A stretch of 64,000 nt of DNA from positions 160,001 through 224,000 of the forward strand of contig CAVXRD010000002.1 in NCBI GenBank assembly GCA_963764165.1, written 5' to 3'. This DNA is from an uncultured Verrucomicrobiae bacterium. Its GTDB lineage: Bacteria > Verrucomicrobiota > Verrucomicrobiia > Limisphaerales > Palsa-1400. Below the pieces are notes generated by a model that searched no databases, was not told where the DNA came from, and saw nothing but the letters and a program-made list of their open reading frames with translations. Made by a program: the position numbers and the translations under genes. Positions 20,362 through 62,466 of the stretch are shown here, in pieces (position 1 is the stretch's first letter; every line of letters starts with the position of its first letter).

Positions 20362-22155
20362 CTACGGCAAATTAAAGGTCTTGCGCTGATTCTGATATTC
20401 CAGCGTCACTGCCGAAGGACTGATGTCTAACACACGGCAGCCGCCAACGACATCATTGATCGACGCCGTTTGGCCGCTGATGAGCGCGCTCGGATGTTTG
20501 GCGGAGTAAAAGATGGCCTGCACTTTGATTCGATCCAGCGCCGTTTTTTCCGGCGCTTTGACCGGCGCGGGTTTGGGAGTTTCGACCGGGACGACGGCTG
20601 CGGGAGCGGGCGCAGGTTGAGGAGCGGGTTCAGGGCCTTTCACCTCGGCAACTTTTGCGGGAGGGATATCCGCCGGAGCCGCGTGCCGCAATGCCGAGGG
20701 GATCTGCTCGGCCACTTCCTCCGATTTTGGCGTCGTCGCTTTCAACCGGGCGATCTCAAACCACGCAAAGCCCCCTGCCGCAGCGCAGACACCCATGCCG
20801 ATGGCGACCCAGCGCGAAACGGATTGCAAGACGCGCGCTTTTTCCGCCTCTTCCGGCGGGGCAAATTTATGGACGTTCCGAGCAGGGACAGGGGCCGGGG
20901 CGGCTTTTTTTGCAGTGGGGGCGGCCGTCGCCTTGGCATGCAGCATTCGAGTCTCAAACGCCAGCGATTCGGGATTGCGGTGACCTTCGCGCCACGCTTC
21001 CAGACGATCCTCCATCCCGATTTGCTGAAGGTAGGCCAGGTCAACCTCTGGGACCGGCAAATCGTCGGCGGTTAACGGAACACCTTCGTATTCAAGCGCG
21101 TTGGCTACATGAACCGCCGTCAGCGCCGTAAATCTGTCGTCGCTCGAACGGGCCGGATGATGATGATTGGCCGCAATTTGGGTCACGTCCGGAGAGATGC
21201 CCCAAAGTCCCAGCAGGTATGCCCCGATCTCCCCGTGACTTGCCCCGAAAATCTCCTTCTCCACCTCCCACAACGGCACGCGTTGTTTCCGGGCGATGGT
21301 GTGCGCACCGTGGTATTGATCGTCAAAATTGGCGGCGAGGATGACTTTGCCCAAATCGTGCATCAAGCCGGCGGTGTAGGCGTGGCCGCTGATTTGCGTG
21401 TCGCCCGTTTCCAACATGGCCAGCGCTTTTGCGGTTTGGGCGACATTGGTGCTATGCTTCCAGATGCTGTCGATGGAAAAGTAGACCGGCTTCACCTTGT
21501 CGTATTGGTTCAGCATTTTCACGGTCATGATAAGCGACTTGACCGTCTCAAATCCAAGGATGCCAACAGCTTCCGTCGGGTCCGTAATCGTCCGAGGCAG
21601 CCCGAAGTATGCCGAATTGAGCACCTGCACCAGTTTGGTTGTCATTGCCATGTCCTTGGCGATGATGTTCCCAATGTCTTCGGTGGTGGCGTTGGGATCA
21701 TTCAGGGCGCTGACCACGTCGAGATAAAGGGAGGGAATGGAGGGGAAGGTTCGAATGCGGCCAACCAGCTCGCGCATGCTCTGGCTCATCCCATAGCTCT
21801 CAGCCACAGAGCGTTCGATAACCGTCTTGGTTATCGCGCGGTTGTAAGGAATCGGCAGGAATTGGTGTCCGCCCAAAACATGGCAGACGACTTTTTCCCG
21901 CTGCGACTCGGCTGCGGCGATGAAACGCAGCGTTTTGGGATTGGCGATGCGAAGCTGGTTCAGCAACTCGGCGCCATCCAATTCCGGCAAATCATAAACG
22001 GCGACGATGGCATCGAACGGGCGCTTGTCGGCTTCCGCCAACGCCGCGCGGCCGTCGCCCACGCCGACCACGGTCCAAGATTCGCCGAGCGTTTGGCGAA
22101 ATTCTTCCCATGCGGCTTGGTTGGGATCGGCTATCAGTATTCGTTTGTCACCCAT
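20362..22155 (-). CDS. Receiver-HDOD protein with TM helix and C-terminal GspB-like periplasmic domain
   Basis: REC-like N-terminus, NSAYFG and GLMHDLGK HDOD motifs, TM WVAIGMGVCAAAGGFAWF, Pro/Ala linker, IFYSAKHPSALISG...VLDISPSAVTL. Confidence 0.85.
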   Translation of the reverse strand: MGDKRILIADPNQAAWEEFRQTLGESWTVVGVGDGRAALAEADKRPFDAIVAVYDLPELDGAELLNQLRIANPKTLRFIAAAESQREKVVCHVLGGHQFLPIPYNRAITKTVIERSVAESYGMSQSMRELVGRIRTFPSIPSLYLDVVSALNDPNATTEDIGNIIAKDMAMTTKLVQVLNSAYFGLPRTITDPTEAVGILGFETVKSLIMTVKMLNQYDKVKPVYFSIDSIWKHSTNVAQTAKALAMLETGDTQISGHAYTAGLMHDLGKVILAANFDDQYHGAHTIARKQRVPLWEVEKEIFGASHGEIGAYLLGLWGISPDVTQIAANHHHPARSSDDRFTALTAVHVANALEYEGVPLTADDLPVPEVDLAYLQQIGMEDRLEAWREGHRNPESLAFETRMLHAKATAAPTAKKAAPAPVPARNVHKFAPPEEAEKARVLQSVSRWVAIGMGVCAAAGGFAWFEIARLKATTPKSEEVAEQIPSALRHAAPADIPPAKVAEVKGPEPAPQPAPAPAAVVPVETPKPAPVKAPEKTALDRIKVQAIFYSAKHPSALISGQTASINDVVGGCRVLDISPSAVTLEYQNQRKTFNLP

Positions 22156-22195
22156 TTGATCCTCTGAGCGCGATTCGTTTGCAGCATTACGAACT

Positions 22196-22223
22196 GTATC
22201 GGCGGAAATGTCCTGAAACTTTA
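22196..22223 (-). promoter_or_regulatory. Sigma-28 (FliA) promoter
   Basis: Minus strand TAAA-N16-GCCGATAC, 40 bp upstream of the HDOD gene. Confidence 0.7.
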
Positions 22224-22300
22224 AGATCCACTCAACGCTTGGCGCGCAGCTATTTCCGTCAAATCAGCGCCATCGCCATTTGCGGGCATCCATTTAGCGC

Positions 22301-23542
22301 TCACCCTGCCGGAATGTTGAATAACCGAATCCAGCGCTCGGCCGCATTTGGCAGGCCAATGCGGGTAAAATACTCGGCGCTCAGCCCCCGCGGAACGGCG
22401 GATGGCGCGTGGGAAATGACATTCGCCGCATGCACCGCGGAGAGCAGTGTAAAGGCCCGGTCTGGCGAACGTTCCGGTTCGTGATGCCATGCCACGGCTT
22501 CAAGAATCCCCAGCGGCAATCCCCACGACGCCAGCAAACACGCGCCAACCGCAGCATGGGTGGCCCCGAAAACTTCCATTTCCGCCGCCGCGTCGGAAAG
22601 ATGTTTCACGCTCCGCAGGGTGCGCGCCTCGCGATAACGATCCGGCAAGTTTCCCGCGAGAATGACTTTCCCCATATCGTGCAGCACGCCTGCGGTGAAA
22701 GCCGCCTCCGCCATCGCGGCGCTCTTGGTTTCCGCGAGCGCAATGGCCCGCGCGCAGACGCCCGCCTGGATGCTGTGTGTCATGAGGGCGTCCATTGAAG
22801 GAATGGCCTCCCCGCTTTCCTTGTATTGCGAGAAAACTCCGGCCAGGAGGATGAGCGATTTAATCCGTTCCGTCCCAAGAATCATGACGGCGTCCATCAT
22901 ATCGGTCACCTCCCGCGCGAGGCCGAAAAAGGCCGAGTTGACCAATTGCAGCATCTTGGCCGACATGACAGGATCCTGGCGGATAAGGTATGCCAGCATG
23001 TCAAGGGAACTGTCGGACGACCGCAATTCCTCGGTGACTTGCGTGTAAAGCCGCGGCATGGCGGGCAGCTTGTGAATGTGAGGAAGAATTTGTTTGACCG
23101 CCGGGTCAGCCATCCACTCGCGCAAGCGGACATTCCGCAATAGCGCGGAAGCCAGGGCGCTCGCGTCGATGGTGCTGGCGATGATGGGCAGCCCGCTTCC
23201 CTTCCACGCTTCCACTGCCGGTTTCGAGGCAAGATCACAACGAACGACACATGCGATATCCGGCCGTTCCTTGCGGATGGACTGAATCCATTCCCGCGCT
23301 CCCGCCACGCTGCCCTCGATGACGACCGCATCGGCGGAATTCCATTCCGGCTTCATAGGGCCGAGCCGCGCATCAGTGGCCAGCGCGCAACTCCAGGAGG
23401 GATAAAGGCATCCCATATCTCGCTTCACTTGCCCGAACCAAAGGGAATCGACGCCTAGGAAAAGAATTTGCGAAAGCGTCCCTGCCGTCTGGTTGCTTGC
23501 CGTTGTTTGCGAATCCATAGCCTTTTGACTTTTGGTTGACAT
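22301..23542 (-). CDS. HDOD domain protein with degenerate receiver-like N-terminus
   Basis: LPAMPRLY, LVNSAFFG, GVLHDMGK, WHHEP; start uncertain. Confidence 0.85.
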   Translation of the reverse strand: MSTKSQKAMDSQTTASNQTAGTLSQILFLGVDSLWFGQVKRDMGCLYPSWSCALATDARLGPMKPEWNSADAVVIEGSVAGAREWIQSIRKERPDIACVVRCDLASKPAVEAWKGSGLPIIASTIDASALASALLRNVRLREWMADPAVKQILPHIHKLPAMPRLYTQVTEELRSSDSSLDMLAYLIRQDPVMSAKMLQLVNSAFFGLAREVTDMMDAVMILGTERIKSLILLAGVFSQYKESGEAIPSMDALMTHSIQAGVCARAIALAETKSAAMAEAAFTAGVLHDMGKVILAGNLPDRYREARTLRSVKHLSDAAAEMEVFGATHAAVGACLLASWGLPLGILEAVAWHHEPERSPDRAFTLLSAVHAANVISHAPSAVPRGLSAEYFTRIGLPNAAERWIRLFNIPAG

Positions 23543-23684
23543 TAGGGCATCCAACTCTTTCTGGCAATCAAACGACTTCCAGAGGCTCGTTTCAAAATTT
23601 TGACAGGAGAATTCTGTCTCACACCCATCAAGAGAATCGCCGCCCAATTTTCCTTGCCGCAAAGCCTGTTCAGGCCGATAGTAT

Positions 23685-31847: not shown

Positions 31848-34211
31848 ATGAAACACATTATGATCGAATGGCGCAAAGTGACTGCCTTGGCGGCTCTGTT
31901 GATTTGCTTTGGCATCTGTTCAGCCCGGGCACAGGCGGATTACGACCAAGCTATTTACAGCGGCCAACTGACAAATGGCTGGGAAAGTTGGAGCTGGTGC
32001 TATTTTGATTTCGGCAACACTCAGGTTCCAGCCCCGTCCGGGAATGAATCAATCTATGTCGGTTTTGGCGCCTACTCCGGCCTTTGGTTCGAGCACGGCC
32101 CTTTCGACCCCACTCTATACACCAATATAAGCTTTTGGATCAACGGCGGCGCCGGCGGACAGCAGCTAACGCTCGAAGCCTCTTTCACGGTGGGCTTGGC
32201 TAACGGGGTGCTCGATACCAATGACGTCATCGCTATCGGGCCCCTGGCGACCAATGTCTGGGAGCAATACAGCTTCCCGCTTTCCATGCTTGCCGCCGCG
32301 ACGAACGCGAATCTCGACGGCTTTATCCTGATCAACGGCACAGGTGGCGATCTCCCCGCCATGTACGTGGCCGATGTCAAGCTGATCGCCGGCCTGCCGC
32401 CCGCGCCAACAACCAATGTTTTGGTCATTGATGCCGCCGCCAATGCGCACCCGATCAGCAGCTTGATCTACGGCGTCGCCGAAACCGATTCCAACACGTT
32501 ATCCGACCTGAATCTCACTGCCAACCGCTCGGGTGGAAATGAAGATGGCAGCACCTATAACTGGGCCGATGGCGTTCACGGCAAAGGCCAGGATTGGTAT
32601 TTCGAGGCTATTCCAGATGATTCGCCAAATCCGGGATATTCAACGGACGAATTCATCTCTAACAGCGTGGCGGGCGGGGCGCAGCCGCTGGTTTCAATTC
32701 CCATGATCGGCTGGAGTCCCAAACTCGGAACCAATCGCAGCATCATATGGAGCTATTCCATCGCAAAATATGGCCCGCAAGAATATTTCTCCCCGAACGT
32801 TGGCGAAAGCGATGCTGGCAACGGGTTCAGCACCACCAATAATTCGCCCATCACCTGGAACGATCCCAACGACGCTTACTTTCCTGTCGGCACTAATTTT
32901 CAAGCCGGCTATCTCAAACACTTGATCGGCCTGTGGGGCAAGTCGGACAAAGGCGGCGTCCCGTTCTACATCATGGACAACGAGCACAGCCTTTGGCACG
33001 CCACGCATCAGGACATCCATCCGCAGGGCGCGACCATGCAGGAAGTTCTATCCAAAATCGTCGATTACGCCAGCTTGGTAAAGAGCATGGACCCGTCGGC
33101 AAAGGTGCTCGCGCCTGAAGAATGGGGCTGGGAAGGCTATCTGTACAGCGGCTACGACCAGCAAAACCCGGGGCGCGCTGACCGCGCGGCCAACGGGGGC
33201 TGGGATTATATGCCTTGGCTCCTCAACCAGCTTTATCAGCATGACACCGCCACCGGCCAGCGACTGCTGGATTATTTCACCCTTCATTGCTACCCGCAGG
33301 GCGGCGAAGACAGCGACGACGTGACCGTCCCCACCGAACTCTTGCGCAATCGATCCACCCGGCAACTGTGGGATACAAACTATGTTGACGACAGTTGGCA
33401 GGAGGCAAACATCCAGTTGATCCCGCGCATGAAGAATTGGGTTTCAGCCAATTATCCCGGCACGAAAATCGGCGTTACCGAATACAACTGGGGCGCCGAT
33501 GATTCCATGAACGGCGCCACCACCCAAGCCGACATCCTTGGCATCTTCGGACGCGAGTCCCTTGACTTGGCCACGCGCTGGGGAACCCCGTCCAACACCA
33601 CACCGACCTACGAGGCGTTCAAAATGTATCGCAATTACGACGGCAAAAAATCGACCTTTGGGGATACCAGCGTCTCGGCCCTTCCCCAAAATCCGGACAA
33701 CGTGTCCGTCTTTGCCGCCAAACGCTCGGTGGATGGCGCGCTCACCATCATGGTTGTGTCAAAATATCTTTCTGGCACGGTGCCATTGACGATGACGATT
33801 ACGAATTTTTCGGCGACGGGAGTGGCGCAAGTCTGGCAGCTTAATTCCAACAACCCTTCCTCCATTCAACGCCTTGCCGACATTTCCTACGCGGGCCAAG
33901 CCTTGAATGCATCCGTCCCTGGCCCGAGCGTCACGCTGTATGTCATTTCGACCAACAGCCCGGCGCCGAGGATCACATCCGGCGCGCTTAGCGGAAATCG
34001 AATGGTGTTCAGCGGCCTGGATGGCCCCGCAAGAGGCGCCAATCACACACCTTATTCTTATTATGTTCTCACCTCGTCCAACCTTGCTCTGCCCCTGGCG
34101 AAATGGACGCCGATCGCGACCAACACATTTAACGCCGATGGCACCTTCAGCTTCACCAATCAAGTCAACGCCAGTTCGCAAGCGCAGTTTTTCACCATTG
34201 CCGTGCCATAA
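31848..34211 (+). CDS. Secreted glycoside hydrolase family 44 (endoglucanase/xyloglucanase) with accessory beta domains
   Basis: Signal peptide, HPISSLIYG, RSGGN, YIMDNEHSLW...H.DIHP, GVTEYNWG, QADILGIFG. Confidence 0.88.
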   Translation: MKHIMIEWRKVTALAALLICFGICSARAQADYDQAIYSGQLTNGWESWSWCYFDFGNTQVPAPSGNESIYVGFGAYSGLWFEHGPFDPTLYTNISFWINGGAGGQQLTLEASFTVGLANGVLDTNDVIAIGPLATNVWEQYSFPLSMLAAATNANLDGFILINGTGGDLPAMYVADVKLIAGLPPAPTTNVLVIDAAANAHPISSLIYGVAETDSNTLSDLNLTANRSGGNEDGSTYNWADGVHGKGQDWYFEAIPDDSPNPGYSTDEFISNSVAGGAQPLVSIPMIGWSPKLGTNRSIIWSYSIAKYGPQEYFSPNVGESDAGNGFSTTNNSPITWNDPNDAYFPVGTNFQAGYLKHLIGLWGKSDKGGVPFYIMDNEHSLWHATHQDIHPQGATMQEVLSKIVDYASLVKSMDPSAKVLAPEEWGWEGYLYSGYDQQNPGRADRAANGGWDYMPWLLNQLYQHDTATGQRLLDYFTLHCYPQGGEDSDDVTVPTELLRNRSTRQLWDTNYVDDSWQEANIQLIPRMKNWVSANYPGTKIGVTEYNWGADDSMNGATTQADILGIFGRESLDLATRWGTPSNTTPTYEAFKMYRNYDGKKSTFGDTSVSALPQNPDNVSVFAAKRSVDGALTIMVVSKYLSGTVPLTMTITNFSATGVAQVWQLNSNNPSSIQRLADISYAGQALNASVPGPSVTLYVISTNSPAPRITSGALSGNRMVFSGLDGPARGANHTPYSYYVLTSSNLALPLAKWTPIATNTFNADGTFSFTNQVNASSQAQFFTIAVP

Positions 34212-34388
34212 GCTCACCACCGCACGCGTCAATGTCTCGGCCAAATCGAAAGCGAGACAGGGCGGCATCGACGGGGGTGATTAAGCGTAACGCAAATGGT
34301 AGCAACGCCTCGCCGAGGCGTCCGGGCCGACACGTGAAATTTTCATCACGCTGGAATTGGAGAGAGCCTCACCCCGGACGCCTCGGCG

Positions 34389-36071
34389 GAGACTGTCTTA
34401 AAACGTTTTAGTCTGGCCGATCTGGTTATATGGGCACCAATAGGGGCTGTGGAAACGGGTGTCAACTTTTAGTTGTCAGAGCGTGGCTGGCGTCAGCGAT
34501 GACGCCAAGCTTCCCTTTCCCTCCTTTTTTAGGCCGCCATCGCCAAATTTCCTTCAACCGCGGCGGTTTTGACTTCCATTTTCGGCGTCTGGACCCGGGC
34601 CTGCCACTTTTTATAGAGGATTCGCAGGTTCAAGGTGGCGCATAACAAGGCCCATTGGGCTTGCACGGCTTCCAGACCCCAAACTGTCCAACGCCGAAAG
34701 CCGTCGTGTTGCTTGAGCTGCCCAAACCGGCGTTCGATGATCTCTTTGCGCTTTCCATAAAGCGCGGCGGGTCCTGGCTCTTGCAGCCGGGCCCGCATGG
34801 CTTGCACCAGCGTGGTGTGCGGCCACACTTCGACTTGCCGCCCTTTGGGATCGCGGCTGCAGAGGGCGCGCACGGGACAGTCTCGGTGATGGCAGCGGAA
34901 GCGCTCAACGGTCTGGCCTTTCTTGGTGGTCTGGCCTTCGTGGTCCAGAAGGCGCTCTTGCGGGCAGGTGACGGTGTGGGCCGCCTCGTCATAATGAAAA
35001 TGCTGCGTCGCGTAGGCGTTGTCGTGGGCTGGCTTGCCCTCCGCCGGCGGGGCCAGCACATTCATCTGCTGTTCCACGGCCGCTTTCAAGTCGGCCCCGC
35101 CCCCATAGCCGGCGTCGGCGGCGGTGAGGGTTGGAATGGCCGCCGGACCGAGGTTTTGCCTCGCTTCTTCAATCATGGGGACCAGCTGGCCGGCGTCGGT
35201 TTCCTGGCGGGTGGCTTGACAGGCGACCATGATGCCCTCCTGGCTGTCGGCCACCGCCTGGGCGTTGTAGGCAAAGCGGTTGGTGTCGCCGACTTTCATC
35301 CGGCGCGCCTCCGGTTCGGCTGGATGGTAATGGTGGCGCCCGTCGGCCTGCAGCTGGGCCAGGCCTTTTTTGATTTCCTCGCGCAGGGCCTGGCGCTGGG
35401 CCAACCCGGCGGGCAGCCGGCAGCCCGGTGCGCTGGAATCCTGGTTCTCCGCCACGACTTTGAGCTCGATTTCCTCCAAGGCGCCATCCAGCTGGGCCAG
35501 GAGCTTCTCCATGTAAACCTTGCTCCAGCCCTGCGGCCCGCTGCAGGCGGCTTGAATCTTGGTGCCGTCCAACGCTTGCAAGGCAAATCCCACCGCCCCG
35601 GTGCGGAGGGCCAGCTGCACGGTTTGCTTGAAAACCTGGCGCAGGGCCTTTTTGTTTCCGTCCCAGAACCGCCAGAGGCTGTTGTGGTCGGGGGCGTTGA
35701 GCCCCGTCAGCCACAGCAGCGAGACATGCTCCGTGCAGGCGGTTTCCAGCTTGCGGGTGGAGCGAATGCGGTGGAAATAACCGTAAAGCCAAATCTTGAG
35801 CAGGAGGCTGGGGGCATAGGGCGGACGGCCTTCGGCGGCGGCGGGAATGACAAACCCAAGCTGGGGCAGATCCAACTGGTCGACAAATTCGCGCAGGAAG
35901 CGGGCGGGATGGTCGGCGGACACCCAGTCCTCCAGGGCGGGCGGGAGGAGGAACTGCTGTCCGTAATCAGGGGCAATCGGTTGAGCCATATTTGTTGAAC
36001 GGCATTGTCAACTAAAGGCTCACATATTGTCAAATACATTCCTCAAAAAACAGAAGTTTTGAGACAATCTC
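34389..36071 (-). mobile_element. IS1182-family insertion sequence, copy 1 (1683 bp)
   Basis: Terminal IRs GAGACTGTCTTAAAAC / GTTTTGAGACAATCTC; near-identical copy at 60784-62466. Confidence 0.93.
34529..35989 (-). CDS. IS1182 family DDE transposase
   Basis: GRPPYAP..LLKIWLYGY, PDHNSLWRF, LDGTK, YNAQ, ADAGY, IERRFGQLK. Confidence 0.93.
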   Translation of the reverse strand: MAQPIAPDYGQQFLLPPALEDWVSADHPARFLREFVDQLDLPQLGFVIPAAAEGRPPYAPSLLLKIWLYGYFHRIRSTRKLETACTEHVSLLWLTGLNAPDHNSLWRFWDGNKKALRQVFKQTVQLALRTGAVGFALQALDGTKIQAACSGPQGWSKVYMEKLLAQLDGALEEIELKVVAENQDSSAPGCRLPAGLAQRQALREEIKKGLAQLQADGRHHYHPAEPEARRMKVGDTNRFAYNAQAVADSQEGIMVACQATRQETDAGQLVPMIEEARQNLGPAAIPTLTAADAGYGGGADLKAAVEQQMNVLAPPAEGKPAHDNAYATQHFHYDEAAHTVTCPQERLLDHEGQTTKKGQTVERFRCHHRDCPVRALCSRDPKGRQVEVWPHTTLVQAMRARLQEPGPAALYGKRKEIIERRFGQLKQHDGFRRWTVWGLEAVQAQWALLCATLNLRILYKKWQARVQTPKMEVKTAAVEGNLAMAA

Positions 36072-36192
36072 TGCGAGGCGTCCCTACCTGGCTTCGCGAC
36101 CAAAATCTCGCGGGCTTTCAATCGCGCTTGCCTCGCCCGGTGGTCCCCACCAATGCTTGTTTTTGGCCCTGCGTGGGCTACCCTCCTCCTTC

Positions 36193-37434
36193 GTGATCGA
36201 ATCTCTAAATCCCAGGCGCACCATCGAGGAATTGAAGGAGCTTCGCGCTTTGACGGGCGACGAAAATGGCGCCCAGCGGGTGGCTTTCACAAAGACCTGG
36301 CTCACCGCGCGCGCGTGGCTTCGCCAAAAATTGGAGGCGCTGCCAGTCGAAATTCATAATGATGCGGCGGGCAATACGTGGACAACTTTGCGGGGAAAAT
36401 CCGAACGGGCCTTGCTCATCGGCGGCCATATGGATTCTGTTCCCAACGGCGGCTGGCTCGATGGCTGCCTGAATGTGCTGGCGGGATTGGAAGTGCTGCG
36501 CCGCATCAACGCCGAATTTAACGGCCAGCCTCCCATCACCGTGCGCCTCGTCGATTGGGCGGATGAAGAAGGCGCTCGCTTCGGGAAGAGCCTTTTTGGA
36601 TCTTCCGCCTGCTCAGGCAATTTGAATTTGGATGAAGCGCGGGGGCTGAAAGACAAGGACGGCATCCGGCTGCCGGATGCGCTGAAGGAAATCGGCGTGG
36701 ATTTTGAGCGGGTGAAGGATTCCGGCGCGGAATTGAAAAATGCGGCGGCTTATTTGGAACTGCACATTGAGCAGGGGCCGGTGTTGCTGGATATGAATTT
36801 GCCGCTGGGCGCGGTGTTGGGAACATTCGGCGTTGAGCGCCACGCCATCACGTTTCACGGGCAGGCCGCCCATTCCGGCAGCACGCCGATGAACCGGCGC
36901 AAGGACGCGTTTCTCGCGGCAGGAAAAATGGCGGCGGAGATTTATCCCATCGCCGACCGGCACGGCGGCGTTTGCACCATCGGCTCATGCTCAACCAAAC
37001 CGGGAATTGTGACGAGCGTGGTCGAGGATTGCCGCATCACCCTCGACCAGCGCCATCTCGACGCCGCGAAATTGGCTGCCATGCTGATTGACGCCCGCAC
37101 GGCCGCCGCCAAATTTGCCGCCGAAGGAAATGTCACCGTTTCGTGGGAGCGTTTGTGGCAGATTGAACCGGTGCATTTTGATCCGATTCTCATTGGATTT
37201 TGTTACGACGCCATTGGTGAAGTCTGCGAAACGAGCCATCGACTTCCGTCCGGCCCGCTGCACGACGCCGCTGAAGTCGCGCGCGCGGGCGTGCCGACGG
37301 TGATGATGTTCGTTCAGAGCCTGCATGGCATCAGCCATAATAAAATTGAGGATACGCTTGAGGAGCATCTCGAACTTTGCGTGGCGGCGTTCGACAAATT
37401 GGCCAACAAAGCCATGCAGTGGATTGAGGGCTGA
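36193..37434 (+). CDS. Zn-dependent M20 amidohydrolase (allantoate amidohydrolase/N-carbamoylase family)
   Basis: GGHMDSVPNGGWLDG, DEEGARFG, ELHIEQG, AHSGSTPM, SGPLHDA; start probably GTG 36193. Confidence 0.9.
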   Translation: MIESLNPRRTIEELKELRALTGDENGAQRVAFTKTWLTARAWLRQKLEALPVEIHNDAAGNTWTTLRGKSERALLIGGHMDSVPNGGWLDGCLNVLAGLEVLRRINAEFNGQPPITVRLVDWADEEGARFGKSLFGSSACSGNLNLDEARGLKDKDGIRLPDALKEIGVDFERVKDSGAELKNAAAYLELHIEQGPVLLDMNLPLGAVLGTFGVERHAITFHGQAAHSGSTPMNRRKDAFLAAGKMAAEIYPIADRHGGVCTIGSCSTKPGIVTSVVEDCRITLDQRHLDAAKLAAMLIDARTAAAKFAAEGNVTVSWERLWQIEPVHFDPILIGFCYDAIGEVCETSHRLPSGPLHDAAEVARAGVPTVMMFVQSLHGISHNKIEDTLEEHLELCVAAFDKLANKAMQWIEG

Positions 37435-37436
37435 CG

Positions 37437-40400
37437 ATGGGAGACGCGCTCGATTTTACGCTGAATGGCCAGACGGTCCGGTTCGACAAGCGCTCCCCCA
37501 ACACCACCCTGCTGGATTTTCTCCGCGCGCGCGGCCTGACCGGCACGAAGGAAGGCTGCGCGGAAGGCGATTGCGGAGCGTGCTCGGTGGCTGTGATCGA
37601 GCGCGATGCCTCCGGCAAAACGGTGCTGCGCGCAATCAATAGCTGTCTCACGCCCGTCTGCCTGCTGGCCGGGCGCGAAGTGATTTCGGTGGAAGGTCTT
37701 GGAACAAAGGACGCGCTGCATCCGGTTCAACGCGAAATGGCGCAGCGCCACGGCTCCCAATGCGGCTACTGCACGCCGGGTTTCATTTGCTCCATGGCGG
37801 AAGGATTTTACCGGGACGATGTCAACACGGGAGACGACATCGACGATCAGCTTTCCGGCAATCTGTGCCGTTGCACCGGCTACCGTCCGATTCGCGAAGC
37901 GGCGGTGGCGGCGCTCGCGCATCAGCCGCACGCCCACCGCCATGACGCCATCGCCAATCGGTTGAAGGAAGAGTGCCGCGAATTATCCGCCGCGAATTAC
38001 GAATTCGGCGGCGAGCGTTTTTTCCGTCCCAATGCGCTGGCGGATGTTTTCAAGTTGATGCGCGAATTTCCCGAGGCGCGGTTGATCGCCGGGGCGACTG
38101 AACTCGGCGTGGATATTGCCAAGCGCTTTCGAAAATTTCCCACGCTGATTTCGCTGGAGGCGGTGGCGGAATTGCAAGGCATCGACGCGAAGGAAGATTC
38201 CTGGCGAATCGGCGCGGCTGTCAAGTTGACGGAAATTGAGGATGCGCTGGGTGAGGAATTTCCCGTGCTTGGGGCGATGCTGCGGGCGTTCGGTTCGCGC
38301 CAAATTCGCAACCGCGCGACGATGGCGGGGAATATCGTGACTGCCTCGCCCATCGGCGACAGCGCGCCTTTGCTTCTGGCGCTGGATGCGTCGCTGACCT
38401 TGGCTTCCGCGAAGGGCGAGCGCACGGTCCTCATTGCGGATTTTTTCACAGGCTATCGCAAGACAGTTTTGCAGGCGGGCGAAATTCTTAAGACGATCAT
38501 TATTCCGCGCATCGGTTTTGATTCGGCGTTATTTCGGCACTCCCGCTGGTATAAAGTTTCGCGCCGGCGCGAGATGGACATCAGCACGGTGGCGGGTTGC
38601 TTTGTAGTTGACATCGATTCTGACGATGTGGTTCGCCATGTCCGGATGGCGTTTGGCGGCGTCGCCGTTTCGCCGAAGCGCGCCCTGAAAGCGGAAGCCG
38701 CCCTGCTCGATCAACCGTGGTCGCAGGAAACCATGGCTCGCATGCTTCCTGTTCTCGGCGCGGAGTTTGAGCCGATTACCGATGTTCGCGGCACGAAGGA
38801 ATATCGTCTCGGCCTGGTGACAAGTTTGCTCGAGAAGTTTTTCACCGAGTTCAATTCCGACGAGGAAATCCCCGAGCCATCGTGGCCAAATCCTTCCCCC
38901 ATCAACGCCTCACCGCACGAAAGCGCGCACAAACACGTCACCGGCGAGGCAATCTACACCGATGACGACGCGGCCAAGCGAAACATGCTCGAAACGTGGC
39001 CCGTCTGCTCGCCGCATGCGCGGGCGAAAATTCTGCGCCGCGATGCCTCCGCCGCCCGCGCGATGCCCGGAATTGCCGCGGTGCTCCTGGCCGAGGATAT
39101 TCCGGGCGAAAACAATGTTGGCGGCGTCAAGAAAGATGAAATTCTCCTCGCCGATTCGGAAGTGATGTATCACAGCCATCTGGTCGCGCTGGTGATTGGT
39201 GAAACCGCCGAAGCCTGCCGCGCCGCCGCCGCCAAGGTCGTCGTCGAATACGAACCGCTCGAACCGGTGCTTACGCTGCGGCAGGCGATCGAAAAACAAT
39301 CGTTCCACAACGAACCGAATTTCATCCGGCGCGGCACCGTTTACAACGCGCTCGAAAAATCTCCCGTCCGCATCGAAGGCGAATTTGAGATGGGCGGGCA
39401 GGAGCATTTTTATTTGGAGATGCAAGCGGCCTGGGCCGAGCCGGGCGAGGACGGTGGCGTGTTCGTGATGTCCTCGACGCAGCATCCATCGGAAGTGCAG
39501 CACACCATCGCGCATGTGCTGCATGTCCCGGTGAGCCGCGTTGTCGTGCAATGTCCGCGCATGGGCGGCGGTTTCGGCGGAAAAGAAACCCAGGCGGCCA
39601 CACCCGCCGCGCTGGCTGCGCTGGCCGCGAGCAAAACCGGGCGCGCCGTGCGCGTGCGCCTCAATCGCGACCAGGACATGGCGATCTTCGGGCATCGGCA
39701 CCCCTTCCTGGCCAAGTTTGAAGCCGGTTGCGACGAGCAAGGAATTTTGACCGCTGCGCGAATTCACCTTTGGTCGAACGGCGGATGGGCGCTGGATTTG
39801 TCGCAAGCCGTGACGGACCGGGCTTTATTTCATCTTGACAACTCTTATTACATTCCGGCGGTGGAATTTCGCGGGCAGGTGGCGAAAACGAATCTTTCGT
39901 CCAACACCGCCTTTCGCGGATTCGGCGGCCCGCAGGGAATGCTTGTCATTGAGGAAATCATGGATCGGCTGGCGCGCCGGTTGAATTTGCCGCCGGAATT
40001 GGTGCGCGAGCGGAATTTGTATCGCGGCAACGGCGCGTCGAACACGACGCATTACGGCCAGGAACTTGAGGACAATCGCCTTCAAACAATCTGGCACGAG
40101 TTGAAAGCCAGCAGCCACTTCGCGGAACGCCGGACGGAAATCGCGCGGTGGAATGCGGCGCATCCCCATCGCAAACGCGGCCTGGCCATGACGCCGGTGA
40201 AGTTTGGCATCAGCTTCACCGTCTCGCATTTGAACCAGGCGGGCGCGCTCGTCTTGATTTACCAGGACGGCACGGTGCAAGTGAACCACGGCGGGACGGA
40301 AATGGGCCAGGGCGTCAATACGAATATGCGCGCCATCGCCGCGATTGAATTCGGCCTGCCCTTGGAGGCGGTCCGCGTCATGCCAACGCGCACCGACAAA

Positions 40401-41201
40401 GTCCCCAACACCTCCGCCTCCGCCGCCTCGGCCACCACCGATCTCAACGGCGCCGCTGTCAAGAAAGCGTGCGAGGTTTTGCGGGCCCGACTGGCTGGAG
40501 TCGCCGCGGGCATCATGGGCATCTCCGTGCAAAACGTGAATTTCGCGGACGGCAAAGTTTTTGTGGGCGACGCGCGCGAGCGGCGCGAATTCCCGTTCAG
40601 CGAAATTGTGCGGCAAGCCTATCTGTCGCGCGTCAGCCTTTCGGCCACCGGCTATTACGCGACTCCCGGGATTCATTGGGATCGCGCGGCCGGGCGCGGG
40701 CATCCCTTCTTGTATTTCGCCTGCGGCGCGGCGGCGGTCGAAGTCGAAGTCGATGGTTTTACCGGAATGTCGCGCGTCCTGCGGGCCGATATTTTGCAGG
40801 ACGTCGGCAATTCGATTAACGAAGGAATCAATCGCGGCCAGGTCGAAGGCGGATTCATCCAGGGCATGGGCTGGCTGACCAACGAAGAACTCAAATGGGA
40901 CGGCCAAGGCCGGCTGCTAACCCATTCACCCGACACCTACAAAATTCCATCGGTGGGCGACACGCCGCTCGTGTTCAATGTGACGTTTCTCAAGAACGCC
41001 GCGCAAAAGAATGTCGTCCACGGCAGCAAGGCCGTCGGCGAACCGCCGTTTATGCTCGCCATCGCGGTGCGTGAAGCGCTGCGCGACGCGGTCGCGGCCT
41101 TCGGCCGCGCTGGCGCCCAAATCCAACTCGATTCGCCTGCCACCCACGAAGCCATCTTCCACGCCATCGGCCAGCGTACTCGTTCCAAGCCCTCCGCTTG
41201 A
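37437..41201 (+). CDS. Xanthine dehydrogenase, fused XdhA (2Fe-2S, FAD) and XdhB (molybdopterin)
   Basis: CAEGDCGAC, QCGYC, NLCRCTGY, QIRNRAT, GGGFGGKE, AFRGFGGPQG, SKAVGEPP. Confidence 0.93.
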   Translation: MGDALDFTLNGQTVRFDKRSPNTTLLDFLRARGLTGTKEGCAEGDCGACSVAVIERDASGKTVLRAINSCLTPVCLLAGREVISVEGLGTKDALHPVQREMAQRHGSQCGYCTPGFICSMAEGFYRDDVNTGDDIDDQLSGNLCRCTGYRPIREAAVAALAHQPHAHRHDAIANRLKEECRELSAANYEFGGERFFRPNALADVFKLMREFPEARLIAGATELGVDIAKRFRKFPTLISLEAVAELQGIDAKEDSWRIGAAVKLTEIEDALGEEFPVLGAMLRAFGSRQIRNRATMAGNIVTASPIGDSAPLLLALDASLTLASAKGERTVLIADFFTGYRKTVLQAGEILKTIIIPRIGFDSALFRHSRWYKVSRRREMDISTVAGCFVVDIDSDDVVRHVRMAFGGVAVSPKRALKAEAALLDQPWSQETMARMLPVLGAEFEPITDVRGTKEYRLGLVTSLLEKFFTEFNSDEEIPEPSWPNPSPINASPHESAHKHVTGEAIYTDDDAAKRNMLETWPVCSPHARAKILRRDASAARAMPGIAAVLLAEDIPGENNVGGVKKDEILLADSEVMYHSHLVALVIGETAEACRAAAAKVVVEYEPLEPVLTLRQAIEKQSFHNEPNFIRRGTVYNALEKSPVRIEGEFEMGGQEHFYLEMQAAWAEPGEDGGVFVMSSTQHPSEVQHTIAHVLHVPVSRVVVQCPRMGGGFGGKETQAATPAALAALAASKTGRAVRVRLNRDQDMAIFGHRHPFLAKFEAGCDEQGILTAARIHLWSNGGWALDLSQAVTDRALFHLDNSYYIPAVEFRGQVAKTNLSSNTAFRGFGGPQGMLVIEEIMDRLARRLNLPPELVRERNLYRGNGASNTTHYGQELEDNRLQTIWHELKASSHFAERRTEIARWNAAHPHRKRGLAMTPVKFGISFTVSHLNQAGALVLIYQDGTVQVNHGGTEMGQGVNTNMRAIAAIEFGLPLEAVRVMPTRTDKVPNTSASAASATTDLNGAAVKKACEVLRARLAGVAAGIMGISVQNVNFADGKVFVGDARERREFPFSEIVRQAYLSRVSLSATGYYATPGIHWDRAAGRGHPFLYFACGAAAVEVEVDGFTGMSRVLRADILQDVGNSINEGINRGQVEGGFIQGMGWLTNEELKWDGQGRLLTHSPDTYKIPSVGDTPLVFNVTFLKNAAQKNVVHGSKAVGEPPFMLAIAVREALRDAVAAFGRAGAQIQLDSPATHEAIFHAIGQRTRSKPSA

Positions 41202-41325
41202 CGTTTAACTGCCATAGCTTTGCCCGGCGCCCCCGAAAAAACGGGCGCGCGGTAATTCTTGGCCGGGACGACTCGGCGAGGCCTCCCTGCCATCTATATG
41301 GCAATGCGCTGGGGAGTCGTGTATC

Positions 41326-44739: not shown

Positions 44740-45420
44740 CTACGCCGCGTGCGGAACGGCGACGCGATGCGACGGAATGGAGAGGACCACCGCGAACAAG
44801 CCGCTGGTCCCGACCGGCGTTGCGTCGACAGTTCCGCTCAGGCAAAACAGGCGGTCATGGACGAGCAGCTCGTCCAATTTCCGCGGCGCGGCCATCGCAA
44901 GTGTCGATGCCTTCTCGACCGTGGCGATGCGGAAGCGGACGAACTCGTCGGCTTCCTCGAGAGTGATGGTGGCTTCCTTGACGCCGTGCGGCGCAAACAG
45001 TTCGTTCACAATATCGCGGCAGACGGAGAAAATTTCGTTTGCCGCCGTCTGCGGAATTGTCACGGGCTGGGCGGGCAGTTGAACATGGCATTGGACGGTT
45101 TCACACGCGGCGCAGGCGAACCAGTTCAGCGCGTCTCCGATGCCCGTGTCGTCGGTCACGCGCGGCTGGAGCTCGTTCATGACGTGGCGCAGGTTCTGGC
45201 CGAGTTCGAGCACGAGAGAAGACCATCTGCCGCAGATAGCCGCCCAATTGGCCGGCGGATTGGAATCCATTTGCGCCATGGAAAGTTGGAGAGAAAGCAG
45301 AGTGAGCTGCTGGCTCATCTCGTCATGAAGGCGGCGAGCCAGCCGTTTCTGCTGCTGCTGGTGGAGCGACTGTTGACGAGCCAGAAGCTCCCGGCATTGG
45401 CCTGGGGTAGTAGTTGGCAT
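44740..45420 (-). CDS. HisKA_3-like protein with degenerate ATPase domain
   Basis: LARRLHDEMSQ H-box and ELQPRV.DD.G; no recognisable N/G1/G2 boxes. Confidence 0.65.
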   Translation of the reverse strand: MPTTTPGQCRELLARQQSLHQQQQKRLARRLHDEMSQQLTLLSLQLSMAQMDSNPPANWAAICGRWSSLVLELGQNLRHVMNELQPRVTDDTGIGDALNWFACAACETVQCHVQLPAQPVTIPQTAANEIFSVCRDIVNELFAPHGVKEATITLEEADEFVRFRIATVEKASTLAMAAPRKLDELLVHDRLFCLSGTVDATPVGTSGLFAVVLSIPSHRVAVPHAA

Positions 45421-45562
45421 TTTCTCGGGCGCGTTAGCAGCAGCCGTAGTGCCAATGGCGCAAACCCCTTAACGCGGGCGCGCCCGCACGGCGAATTTGT
45501 AAGTGAAAGTGTCCAACTTCTATCGTGTTCCAGAATTGGGTGTCACAGAACTGGACGAAAGA

Positions 45563-47161: not shown

Positions 47162-47311
47162 CCCGGCATGGGGCGGGCGCGGCTGCTACTCTGCCGATAA
47201 CCAGCCGCAATGAAGACACCCCAATTTTTGCGCCTCGTTAACAAATCGACTCTGCCTCGCCGTGGCTGGGCGCTTGAAAAAATTTGCCGCCTCGTTGAAT
47301 AATGCTCGTCC

Positions 47312-49471
47312 ATGGGCGAAATTCTTGATAGCAGGCAGTTGAAAGCCTTTTCCGTTCTTGCCACCACCGAGAGCTTTAAAGACACCGCGAAACTGCTTTC
47401 ATTAACTCCGTCGGCGATCAGCCACTCCATCAGCGCGCTGGAGGAGCAAGTGGGCTGCCGCCTGTTTGTAAAAATGGGCAAGAAAACCGTGCTGACCGAA
47501 GCTGGTGAAGCGCTGTTCCATCACTCCAATCGCGCCCTTGGCGAGCTGGATCAAGCCATCCGGACGCTCAGTTATTTTAACAAATGGGGGACGCGCCGGC
47601 TGCGATTGGCCGCGGAAGCGGCATTTCTTTCAGTTTTCCTTCCGCCGGTCTTGTTGAGGTTCCACAAGGAGTCTCCGCATATTTTGCTTCAGGTCGAATC
47701 TCATGACCCTGGCGAGCCATTCGATCGCCTGGGAAAAAACCAGGTTGACCTTATCTTGACCGAAAAGCCGGCGGGAACTGATGCGGTGGATTTCTATCCC
47801 CTGATAACGGATCGCTACCAATTGATCGCCAAGCCCGGGCATCCGCTCGCGGCTAAAAGCGGCCCGCTTCGGGATGAATTTGGCGAATATCCGTGCTTCC
47901 TGATCAAGAACTCCAGCCAGCATCGGAAGCAGGTGGAAGATTTTTTGTCCTACCACAAAGTCAACCTCAGCATCCTGGGGGAGATTGAAAATCTGGAGAT
48001 TGTCAAAGAAATGGTCAAGAACACGCTGGCCTTGAGTTTCCTGCCGGGCTGGAGCGTCAAATGGGAATTGGAGAATCAATCTCTCGTTTCTCTGCCGCAT
48101 GGCCGCGGTGTTTTCGAGCGGACATGGGGATTGGTGCATTCACGAAATCGCCCCCTTAACATGACAGAATCAACCCTGCTGAAACTGTGCAGGCGGCGGG
48201 CCGCGGAATCGGAATGGAAGCCCCAAAACACAGTCACGGTGGGCGTGCTTCACTCGTTAAGCGGAACGATGGCCATCAGCGAAACGTCCCTGCGCGATGT
48301 TTTGTTGTTTGCGTTCCATGAAATTAACAAGGCCGGTGGCATCAAAGTCGGCAACAAGGCGTATGCCATCGAACCGGTGGTCGTGGATGGCGCGTCCAAC
48401 TGGTCATTATTTGCGGAAAAGGCCAGGGAACTCCTGGTGGAAGACAAGGTGGCTGTCACCTTTGGCTGCTGGACCTCTGCCAGCCGCAAGTCCGTGCAGC
48501 CTGTTTTCGAGAAGCACAACGGATTGCTGTTCTATCCCGTGCAATATGAGGGCGAGGAAATGTCCAAGAACATCTTCTATGTCGCCGAGACATTCAACCA
48601 GCAAGCCATGCCGGCCGTCGATTATCTGCTCGCCAGGGGCACAAGGAAATTTTACCTGATCGGCACTGATTACATTTATCCGCAAACCACGAATTTGATT
48701 CTGTACAAATACCTTCTCTTGCACGGCATTCCGCCCGAAAGCATTGGCGGCGGCGTCCGCAAGGCTCCATCCGGCAACGTCATTTCCGCGGGAAAATACA
48801 TTCCTTTCGGCCACACGGATTTTGAGGATATTGCCGCGGAAATAAAGGCGTTCGCGGCTTCCGGCGAGGCGTGCGTGATCAACACGATCAACGGCGATTC
48901 CAACGTGTCCTTCTTCAAGAAAATCGCGGCGGAAGGATTGAGGCCATCGCACTGCACGGTGGTTTCGTTCAGCCTGGCGGAAGATGAACTCCGCAGCATG
49001 CCGACCAAGAATCTTGTCGGTGAGATCGGCTGCTGGAGTTATTTCATGTCGCTCAAAACACCCGCCAACAAAGCCTTCCTCAAAAACTGGTACAACTGGC
49101 TGAAAAACGAAAGCTATCCAGGTGTCGTCAGGGAAAAGCGCGCGGTGGACAGCCCGATCGTGCTTTCCTACAGCGGCGTTTACTTGTGGAAAATGGCCGT
49201 GGAAAAAGCCGGCACGTTTGATGTGGACACTGTGCGCAACGTGCTGGAATCAGGTGAAATCAGCTTCGAGGGCCCCGGCGGCAAAATCACCGTGCAAGCC
49301 AATCATCATTGCACCAAGAATGTTTACATTGGTGAAACGACCGCCAACGGCCAATTCAGGATTCGGGAAACCTTGCCGCAGGTTTTTGGCGAGCCCTTCG
49401 TCGCGGAAAAATTCCTCCTTGAACACTTGGATCAAAAGCTGTCCGCCGACAATGGCCACCCGATTGAATAG
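47312..49471 (+). CDS. LysR-type regulator fused to UrtA/AmiC-like urea/amide-binding domain
   Basis: LysR HTH (LKAF..LA...[18 protein letters not shown]) in the first ~300 aa, then [38 protein letters not shown]. Confidence 0.88.
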
Positions 49472-49504
49472 TTGACTGATCCTTGGTGAATGCAGGACAC
49501 GCAT

Positions 49505-60783: not shown

Positions 60784-62466
60784 GAGACTGTCTCAAAACG
60801 TTTTAGTCTGGCCGATCTGGTTATATGGGCACCAATAGGGGCTGTGGAAACGGGTGTCAACTTTTAGTTGTCAGAGCGTGGCTGGCGTCAGCGATGACGC
60901 CAAGCTTCCCTTTCCCTCCTTTTTTAGGCCGCCATCGCCAAATTTCCTTCAACCGCGGCGGTTTTGACTTCCATTTTCGGCGTCTGGACCCGGGCCTGCC
61001 ACTTTTTATAGAGGATTCGCAGGTTCAAGGTGGCGCATAACAAGGCCCATTGGGCTTGCACGGCTTCCAGACCCCAAACTGTCCAACGCCGAAAGCCGTC
61101 GTGTTGCTTGAGCTGCCCAAACCGGCGTTCGATGATCTCTTTGCGCTTTCCATAAAGCGCGGCGGGTCCTGGCTCTTGCAGCCGGGCCCGCATGGCTTGC
61201 ACCAGCGTGGTGTGCGGCCACACTTCGACTTGCCGCCCTTTGGGATCGCGGCTGCAGAGGGCGCGCACGGGACAGTCTCGGTGATGGCAGCGGAAGCGCT
61301 CAACGGTCTGGCCTTTCTTGGTGGTCTGGCCTTCGTGGTCCAGAAGGCGCTCTTGCGGGCAGGTGACGGTGTGGGCCGCCTCGTCATAATGAAAATGCTG
61401 CGTCGCGTAGGCGTTGTCGTGGGCTGGCTTGCCCTCCGCCGGCGGGGCCAGCACATTCATCTGCTGTTCCACGGCCGCTTTCAAGTCGGCCCCGCCCCCA
61501 TAGCCGGCGTCGGCGGCGGTGAGGGTTGGAATGGCCGCCGGACCGAGGTTTTGCCTCGCTTCTTCAATCATGGGGACCAGCTGGCCGGCGTCGGTTTCCT
61601 GGCGGGTGGCTTGACAGGCGACCATGATGCCCTCCTGGCTGTCGGCCACCGCCTGGGCGTTGTAGGCAAAGCGGTTGGTGTCGCCGACTTTCATCCGGCG
61701 CGCCTCCGGTTCGGCTGGATGGTAATGGTGGCGCCCGTCGGCCTGCAGCTGGGCCAGGCCTTTTTTGATTTCCTCGCGCAGGGCCTGGCGCTGGGCCAAC
61801 CCGGCGGGCAGCCGGCAGCCCGGTGCGCTGGAATCCTGGTTCTCCGCCACGACTTTGAGCTCGATTTCCTCCAAGGCGCCATCCAGCTGGGCCAGGAGCT
61901 TCTCCATGTAAACCTTGCTCCAGCCCTGCGGCCCGCTGCAGGCGGCTTGAATCTTGGTGCCGTCCAACGCTTGCAAGGCAAATCCCACCGCCCCGGTGCG
62001 GAGGGCCAGCTGCACGGTTTGCTTGAAAACCTGGCGCAGGGCCTTTTTGTTTCCGTCCCAGAACCGCCAGAGGCTGTTGTGGTCGGGGGCGTTGAGCCCC
62101 GTCAGCCACAGCAGCGAGACATGCTCCGTGCAGGCGGTTTCCAGCTTGCGGGTGGAGCGAATGCGGTGGAAATAACCGTAAAGCCAAATCTTGAGCAGGA
62201 GGCTGGGGGCATAGGGCGGACGGCCTTCGGCGGCGGCGGGAATGACAAACCCAAGCTGGGGCAGATCCAACTGGTCGACAAATTCGCGCAGGAAGCGGGC
62301 GGGATGGTCGGCGGACACCCAGTCCTCCAGGGCGGGCGGGAGGAGGAACTGCTGTCCGTAATCAGGGGCAATCGGTTGAGCCATATTTGTTGAACGGCAT
62401 TGTCAACTAAAGGCTCACATATTGTCAAATACATTCCTCAAAAAACAGAAGTTTTGAGACAATCTC
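60784..62466 (-). mobile_element. IS1182-family insertion sequence, copy 2 (1683 bp)
   Basis: IRs GAGACTGTCTCAAAAC / GTTTTGAGACAATCTC (15/16 match). Confidence 0.93.
60924..62384 (-). CDS. IS1182 family DDE transposase (same protein as 34529-35989)
   Basis: Identical 486-aa translation in the ORF track. Confidence 0.93.
   Translation of the reverse strand: MAQPIAPDYGQQFLLPPALEDWVSADHPARFLREFVDQLDLPQLGFVIPAAAEGRPPYAPSLLLKIWLYGYFHRIRSTRKLETACTEHVSLLWLTGLNAPDHNSLWRFWDGNKKALRQVFKQTVQLALRTGAVGFALQALDGTKIQAACSGPQGWSKVYMEKLLAQLDGALEEIELKVVAENQDSSAPGCRLPAGLAQRQALREEIKKGLAQLQADGRHHYHPAEPEARRMKVGDTNRFAYNAQAVADSQEGIMVACQATRQETDAGQLVPMIEEARQNLGPAAIPTLTAADAGYGGGADLKAAVEQQMNVLAPPAEGKPAHDNAYATQHFHYDEAAHTVTCPQERLLDHEGQTTKKGQTVERFRCHHRDCPVRALCSRDPKGRQVEVWPHTTLVQAMRARLQEPGPAALYGKRKEIIERRFGQLKQHDGFRRWTVWGLEAVQAQWALLCATLNLRILYKKWQARVQTPKMEVKTAAVEGNLAMAA

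Follow-up and report, generated by a model that had tools for sequence, protein, structure and literature searches.

The fused gene and its surroundings

The LysR-type regulators (LTTRs) are the largest family of regulators. They are modelled with two domains, the ligand being sensed in the protein's own cleft, and usually end after the effector domain at about 300 aa. The window analysed here, a 64-kb stretch of the genome G000, carries an extended LTTR of 719 aa with an extra domain of 390 aa. HTH_1, LysR_substrate and Peripla_BP_5 all score above the Pfam cut-off in this protein, which we call the fusion. The features of the locus are collected in Table 1; C2 stands for contig coordinates in G000.

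The initial annotation had described an uninterrupted reading frame in which a LysR protein runs into a UrtA-like sequence, with neither a signal peptide nor a transmembrane segment at the junction and with no urtBCDE genes nearby, and this description holds. The hydropathy maximum in a 19-aa window is 0.68 at the junction, and the peak for the whole protein, 1.68, lies at aa 97-115 within the LysR domain. No urtB-E genes were found near the ORF, and the only other UrtA-type sequence of G000 lies outside the window. In 68 of 76 fused proteins, 14 residues separate LC from the first strand of UrtA; the pattern did not match the other eight. The GASTTACQ motif of the family to which the LysR half belongs, with its STT after the first strand, has been lost in the fusions. 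An AlphaFold (AF2) model of the fusion has a pLDDT of 63.8 and a pTM of 0.38, too low to judge domain packing. The fused proteins are labelled in the database as 'urea transport system substrate-binding protein', which masks the LysR half.

Table 1. Features of the fused gene and its upstream region, by position in the window
Feature	Position	Strand	Evidence
lysR-urtA fusion gene (P0001), 719 aa	47312..49471	+	ORF, no internal stop, Pfam domains, homologues
LysR winged HTH, aa 8-66	47333..47509	+	PF00126 (HTH_1), E 1e-16; dN/dS 0.15
LysR effector-binding domain (LysR_substrate), aa 95-297	47594..48202	+	PF03466; GASTTACQ replaced by AAEAAFLS
Predicted sensor-docking face, half 1, aa 112-120	47645..47671	+	Transferred from the predicted complex of relatives; conservation
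Predicted docking face, half 2, aa 281-296, C-terminal LysR helix leading into the UrtA domain	48152..48199	+	Predicted complex; conservation
Junction, aa 298-308, short, hydrophilic, without signal peptide	48203..48235	+	Hydropathy; alignment
UrtA-derived, putative urea-binding domain (Peripla_BP_5), aa 309-696	48236..49399	+	Pfam; pocket residues; PMC10392092
Degenerate LTTR box (TGAA-N5-TTCA type), candidate autoregulatory site	47275..47287	.	Pair 5.3 bits; position in relatives
Second degenerate LTTR box, its end 3 nt short of the start codon	47296..47308	.	Pair 5.3 bits; position in relatives
Weakened candidate enhancer palindrome, 9.9 bits, within the HTH coding sequence	47465..47481	.	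Motif score

Purine genes, namely an xdhAB fusion and an M20 amidohydrolase, lie 6-11 kb from the fusion gene. The xdhA and xdhB parts share one 1254-aa ORF (37437-41201) which passes both TIGR cut-offs. A 486-aa transposase-like ORF is present in two copies, one directly before the amidohydrolase-xdh genes (34529-35989) and one at 60924-62384. On the minus strand, a strong sigma-54-like motif (45439-45455, 17.3 bits) immediately precedes an ORF of 226 aa (44740-45420) whose only domain is HisKA_3, and two adjacent ORFs at 20362-23662, which we take to resemble HDOD-type signalling proteins, are linked upstream to a hybrid kinase.

The ligand pocket of the UrtA domain

The third domain of the fusion matches solved urea-binding proteins with E-values of about 1e-92 to 1e-96, and AmiC with 1e-29. 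According to the available part of PMC10392092, Prochlorococcus UrtA binds urea with a Kd of 141 nM in a pocket of nine residues, W120, S122, Y141, Q144, E146, Y190, F192, N246 and S274, of which F192 is dispensable. The corresponding residues of the fusion, mapped by motif and checked on the alignment with 8HIC, are W387, S389, Y408, Q411, E413, Y454, Y456, N527 and S554. All nine positions are invariant in 76/76 fused and 36/36 stand-alone proteins, and eight of the nine residues are identical between Prochlorococcus UrtA and every one of the 76 fused proteins, F192 being replaced by Tyr.

The initial annotation had proposed a one-component transcription factor for urea or amides. Its urea half is supported by the pocket residues, by selection and by gene context, and its amide half is narrowed, the pocket residues being of the urea and not of the AmiC type. 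The fusion carries YPVQYEG and N527, as in urea-type proteins, and the amide pocket of AmiC reads YPTPYEG and has no Asn at the place of N246. Both AmiC and a formamidase-linked paralogue have other residues at the places of Q411 and N527, whose counterparts in UrtA bond the two nitrogens of urea (available part of PMC10392092). From these residues we infer that the domain binds urea. Against TIGR03407 it scores 449 bits, below the cut-off of 492.75; the same cut-off is failed by G000's own UrtA (480) and passed by the formamidase-locus protein (505.5). The two formamidase loci (L158, L159) combine a formamidase with a UrtABCDE-like transporter, headed by a NasS-like gene and a distant LTTR of the family, and their binding protein has an AmiC-like pocket yet scores above the urea TIGR cut-off.

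Distribution, selection and origin

The fusion is not unique to this assembly. Homologue search scored 8000 candidates, and among the 120 best matches, which were inspected, 76 (the fusion itself included) are full-length relatives with all three domains at 69-81% identity. An assembly artefact was rejected: at least 75 relatives are full-length, the junction is fixed and every domain is under purifying selection. Across 13 genes, the median dN/dS is 0.15 for the HTH (55/78 pairs usable), 0.18 for the LysR effector domain (76/78) and 0.12 for the UrtA domain (78/78), the lowest of the three.

The source names of the matches point to Verrucomicrobiota, apart from two labels that disagree: the fused proteins P0009 and P0020 have non-Verrucomicrobial ones, by either mislabelling or transfer. 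The fusion is present in five of the 31 genomes of the family, in 2/401 genomes sampled from the order (G000 and one of another family) and in 10/42 metagenome loci, where L125 is counted as fused by its 87% identity, its sequence ending before the UrtA part. Locus L151, at 75% identity to the unfused P0180, is not counted as fused and remains in the motif training set and the neighbour check described below. An ESM Atlas search with the fusion gave no usable match, and a scan of genomes for related loci returned only stand-alone UrtA. No other LysR fusion was seen among 189 further UrtA-like proteins scanned, and no second LysR-UrtA fusion family in the best 150 representatives, a set in which the cluster of the fusion itself did not appear at full length. 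LysR-NasS fusions were rejected: three long matches of a nitrate LysR lack a second Pfam domain and resemble ORFs called too long, on the weak evidence of a search with 8000 candidates scored.

The fused LysR parts form one clade, grouped with the LysRs of urea operons, in a careful tree of 31 chosen rows (100/99) and in a quick tree of 72 rows. Two unfused proteins, P0180 and P0198, are closer to them than these LysRs are, at 42-52% identity. In a quick tree of 43 rows, with the nearest rows picked for similarity and a midpoint root, the fused UrtA parts fall together as a single clade nested among the periplasmic UrtAs of the lineage, and the urtA of G000 itself branches elsewhere. Judged by its sequence, the UrtA domain is a descendant of the lineage's own periplasmic UrtA and not of AmiC. 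The sequences suggest one fusion event, in which urtA was duplicated onto the neighbouring regulator, and they also suggest a later sideways spread of the fusion that displaced resident LysRs.

The urea operon and its candidate regulatory sites

G000 has an operon porin-urtABCDE-ureD-ureAB-ureC-ureF-ureG at about C2:120.8-132.9 kb, 74 kb from the fusion; two of its genes we take, by their position, to be ureD and ureF. A separate urtA with a signal peptide heads the urea transporter genes, and the promoter region of the operon holds the decayed 5' remnant of an old lysR. The fusion is the only one of its clade among the eight LTTRs of G000, the others having at most 32% identity, and urease is present in G000 and in 5/5 other fusion genomes tested.

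The fused gene adjoins porin, urt or ure genes in 12 of 16 fused loci, some of which are close kin and two of which (G003, L124) lie on contigs that carry the porin gene only. It is directly divergent from the porin gene in seven, divergent behind a lysR remnant in two and adjacent to urea genes in other orientations in three. It stands elsewhere, among unrelated neighbours, in three more (G000, G019, G022), and one locus is too short to tell. In five other genomes a stand-alone LysR, divergent from the porin-urt-ure operon, takes the same place as the seven fused genes. In G019 the fused gene is found behind a nif cluster (nifN-like, nifB and nifV-like; L019:1-8800), and an intact stand-alone LysR is still present at the urea operon.

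A GG-N10-GC sigma-54 motif toward the porin gene was found in all 21 promoter regions examined. Upstream of it, in 17 training regions, are two boxes of the TGAA-N5-TTCA type at a spacing of 22 bp. The proximal box lies 40-43 bp ahead of TGGC, and the two centres are at about -84 and -62. This training set is circular because its positions were picked by pattern, and G000 was held out. On both strands of the 7 Mb of the held-out genome, the best box-pair site is the urea promoter at 30.9 bits, followed by a site at 20.1. When the box pair and the sigma-54 promoter are combined, the urea promoter scores 43.6 and the next site 16.4, and among 376 sigma-54-like sites in G000 the urea promoter alone has a box pair at the proper offset, the next score being 0.7. 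The predicted sites follow the paired T-N11-A pattern of LTTRs, between regulator and divergent target, in 17 relatives and in held-out G000. The fusion likely binds these two boxes, which closely precede the sigma-54 promoter at the urea operon.

Nine fused genes are not directly divergent from the porin gene. At the start of six of them there is a box pair, with scores from 31.4 down to 5.3 bits, and three have none. The pair upstream of the fusion gene in the window is the weakest of the six, and no clear sigma-54 promoter was found before this gene. The fusion probably represses its own gene. Another box pair of 13.3 bits, just past the stop codon (49465-49499), was set aside, as 46 sites of at least 12 bits occur genome-wide.

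Three genomes (G028, G012 and G024) have no regulator adjacent to the urea operon, and no fusion was found in them. Both G028 and G024, the latter an assembly which is 83% complete, keep the operon and its promoter, with no such regulator found and no box at the offset. G012 keeps the operon, the sigma-54 motif and one box, again with no such regulator found.

G000 encodes rpoN and has 12 strong matches to Sigma54_activat, the enhancer-binding protein domain. A candidate enhancer palindrome, TTG-N2-CA-N3-TG-N2-CAA, has a strong copy at the urea operon (20.8 bits, G000:C2:133059) which ranks second genome-wide in G000. The palindrome lies inside the HTH coding sequence of divergently placed relatives and is kept in lysR remnants. 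In the decayed stand-alone lysR genes (G000 L016, C2:132,900-133,100; G022, G028, G012, G024 and L121) similarity stops shortly after it, and its distance to the sigma-54 motif downstream ranges from 174 to 253 bp, with most values near 220. The palindrome is likely an enhancer embedded in the regulator gene. Ahead of ammonium transporter genes, a similar palindrome of 14.2 bits stands 117 bp in front of a sigma-54 motif. Genome-wide, the motif is not enriched near sigma-54 sites (10/314, against 2.5% at random).

A sigma-54 motif also faces back into the regulator gene in 14 of the 21 regions. Face-to-face motifs, one of them toward the porin gene, are seen at L021, L023-L026, L116-L119, L124 and L125. 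The back-facing motif is 75-90 bp downstream of the porin-directed one, and the arrangement is similar at nitrate loci.

Two further proposals of the initial annotation concern the local sequence. The direct repeat reported before the gene exists, with the core CGCCTCGTT at 47231 and 47288, but as a site it is unconserved and at chance level: an exact 9-mer repeat occurs in 448 of 5000 random 150-bp windows of the same contig, and none of 15 other upstream regions contains CGCCTCGTT with fewer than two mismatches. The purine genes, named as candidate targets, are present as described, but as targets they find no support: none of the top-six box pairs falls on either strand of the purine region (34,000-41,300), and not one of seven window neighbours, among them the purine genes, reappears at any of 15 further loci (14 fused and L151).

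Related regulators with predicted free sensors

The LysR half of the fusion belongs to a family found at sigma-54 operons for nitrogen sources (nitrate, nitrite, formamide), with similar box and promoter geometry. Among 46 non-urea LTTR loci, 16 open the divergent operon with a gene for a signal-less, NasS-like NMT1_2 protein (L129, L138, L142, L143, L149, L150, L152, L158-L160, L163, L165 and L167-L170), and five further non-urea loci have an NMT1_2 version with a signal-like N-terminus. One NMT1_2 sensor was searched, and the closest match was the C-terminal regulatory domain of NrtC/CmpC. No ANTAR proteins were found in the 31 family genomes, 18 of which are at least 90% complete; the positive control returned them in 3/3 betaproteobacteria.

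Two copies of the LTTR from the nitrate locus of G019 were co-folded with its NasS-like sensor, using 12-row alignments. The predicted complex scored 0.69, and the best of three controls 0.00. The mark for this score was reached by 116/157 solved complexes and 2/215 mismatched pairs, a calibration that applies to this complex only roughly. The contacts agree to at least 89%, and the pLDDT of the partner is at least 89. The listed matches of the two G019 partners have no PDB entry in common. The G019 LTTR is predicted by the model to bind the NasS-like sensor on its C-terminal face. On the LTTR side the predicted interface is made of aa 112-120 and the C-terminal helix 281-299, and that helix is the one which runs into UrtA in the fusion.

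Conservation of this face was compared as identity over 17 positions against the rest of the effector domain. It is 0.66 vs 0.54 in the 16 paired LTTRs, where R115, E116 and S120 occur in 16/16, and 0.88 vs 0.73 in the 76 fused proteins. It is 0.25 vs 0.48 in the five stand-alone, unpaired urea LysRs, 0.34 vs 0.47 in 15 LTTRs for which no partner is visible and 0.68 vs 0.78 in five LTTRs whose first gene is of the periplasmic type. By resampling of columns, P is about 0.05 (paired), 0.002 (fused), 0.001 (stand-alone urea) and 0.03 (no visible partner), values which are overstated by kinship. The conservation near the fusion point could be merely structural. The face residues differ, with LK.HKE in the fusion and RE.KES in the paired relatives, and so does the sensor family, UrtA versus NMT1_2, so the transfer of the docking mechanism to the fusion is by inference.

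Proposed mechanism and alternatives

With somewhat more confidence than doubt, we propose that the fusion is a urea-released anti-activator at the sigma-54 promoter of porin-urtABCDE-ureDABCFG. It likely holds the promoter down until urea closes the UrtA domain. Sigma-54 polymerase requires an enhancer-binding ATPase (available part of PMC4987338), so an LTTR at -62/-84 could only gate that activation. Under nitrogen limitation, an enhancer-binding protein about 220 bp upstream would activate the sigma-54 promoter, and the regulator, bound near -84 and -62 on the stretch that separates enhancer from promoter, would bend or block the loop. Cytoplasmic urea would then close the tethered UrtA domain, and the closed domain may pack on LysR helix 112-120 and on the C-terminal helix, shifting the regulator so that activation proceeds. 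The outcome would be an AND gate for nitrogen starvation and urea.

The same protein, ligand and target would fit the opposite sign, with the urea-bound fusion as an indispensable co-activator: by bending DNA, much as IHF does, it would help the activator on the enhancer to reach sigma-54 polymerase. The boxes do sit between candidate enhancer and promoter at fixed helical spacing, and most LTTRs activate upon ligand binding (available part of PMC11495319). A strict requirement, however, would not easily allow G028, G012 and G024 to keep the operon and the sigma-54 motif without a regulator, and we consider co-activation unlikely. Anti-activation is preferred to it because three genomes retain operon and promoter without the regulator, two of them without a box at the offset. 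The sign is thus argued from the position of the sites and from two genomes, kin not being independent. Rather less probable than co-activation is a regulator in which the LysR domain senses an effector of its own, either a nitrogen-status metabolite or urea, with UrtA as a second tuning input or a structural passenger; the initial annotation had likewise allowed for two inputs. The closest solved LTTRs are NtcB and 5Y2V, which we take to be NdhR. The ligand of NdhR is 2-oxoglutarate (available part of PMC11495319). The effector domain is under purifying selection, and the five stand-alone urea LysRs stand at the same boxes with no partner gene; because they use these boxes without a fused sensor, the UrtA domain is not needed for the site. 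Against a ligand in the LysR cleft stand the urea pocket, invariant in all 76 fused proteins, the dN/dS of the UrtA domain, lower than that of either LysR domain, and the loss of the family's STT motif.

Two narrower readings concern the target and the ligand. Regulation of the neighbouring purine genes, or of other local genes in G000, has their proximity in its favour, and purine breakdown yields urea. The purine region is, however, free of top-six box pairs, the window neighbours do not recur, and the neighbours in G000, G019 and G022 are unrelated, which leaves this reading very improbable. The least probable of the readings is a UrtA domain for another small amide (formamide, acetamide or carbamate) in place of urea. 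Peripla_BP_5 does include AmiC, and the TIGR03407 score falls short of its cut-off, but the fusion retains Q411 and N527, two positions at which AmiC and the formamidase-locus protein differ from it, and the cut-off itself excludes the true UrtA of G000 and admits the formamidase-locus protein.

Relation to known systems

The proposed anti-activator has partial precedents. AtzR reportedly acts as an antiactivator at PatzT. The available part of a review (PMC11495319) presents AtzR of Pseudomonas sp. ADP as an LTTR for an alternative nitrogen source, cyanuric acid, in which it resembles the fusion, and cites 'Mechanism of antiactivation at the ... sigmaN-dependent PatzT promoter'. Unlike the fusion, AtzR is without an attached binding protein, and its effector domain is itself the place where the ligand binds (available part of PMC12831285). 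Nac of Klebsiella and E. coli is a nitrogen-controlled LTTR which autoregulates by preventing the DNA bending that an activator requires (available part of PMC11495319). The sigma-54 motif which faces back into the regulator gene is a Nac-like trait in the fusion's relatives, but Nac is ligand-free and global, whereas the fusion has a ligand domain and one strong predicted target. Placement is similar to both systems, with a predicted site beside a -24/-12 promoter of nitrogen-source genes in a genome with rpoN and enhancer-binding proteins.

On the sensor side, AmiC-AmiR and NasS-NasT also use a signal-less solute-binding protein as a cytoplasmic sensor for nitrogen-source genes (available part of PMC3795266). 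Their output is a separate RNA-binding ANTAR protein, whereas here it is a DNA-binding LTTR, fused or adjacent; with no ANTAR partner found in the 31 family genomes, the fusion belongs to neither sensor-antiterminator system. It has fold family, pocket residues and descent in common with UrtA (TIGR03407; PDB 8HIC, 7S6E, 7S6F, 8TG1), and differs from transport UrtA in having no signal peptide and no adjacent permease of its own and in being attached to a DNA-binding protein. UrtA-like Peripla_BP_5 domains are fused elsewhere to histidine kinases, GGDEF, HD, SpoIIE, MCP, protein kinases and TrmB HTH. The proteins P0124-P0312 likewise include UrtA-like domains with TIR, caspase, SIR2-like, kinase, MCP, GGDEF and TrmB partners, some in tandem with up to nine stretches. 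Since such domains recur on many outputs, their recruitment as a sensor is common, which lowers the surprise of a LysR-UrtA fusion. The known fusions attach to enzymes or to a bare HTH, whereas here the partner is a complete LTTR. No description of a LysR-UrtA fusion was found in a literature search that covered few subscription papers, and the available part of a 2024 review of LTTR exceptions (PMC11495319) has no such fusion, the terms 'fused' and 'additional domain' occurring 0 times in it.

Significance

A broader reading, to which we give slightly less than even weight, is that this LTTR family of Verrucomicrobia gates sigma-54 nitrogen-source operons and takes its signal from a cytoplasmic solute-binding protein docked on the C-terminal face, not from its own pocket. 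A free sensor resembling NasS or the NrtC domain, replacing NasT, would serve at nitrate and formamide loci and a tethered UrtA here, so that two unrelated binding folds would drive one face. If the docking reading is true, the fusion is a Rosetta stone for signalling between an LTTR and its sensor.

Direct tests are possible for such a conserved LTTR, which has a second sensor domain and for which both a target and a docking face are predicted; one possible use of it is a one-gene urea biosensor. If true, the proposal would mean that LTTRs can receive protein-to-protein input and that a sigma-54 promoter can be gated by a ligand through a protein which is not its activator. It would also name a urea regulator for a group of Verrucomicrobiota that is known here from genomes and metagenomes only.
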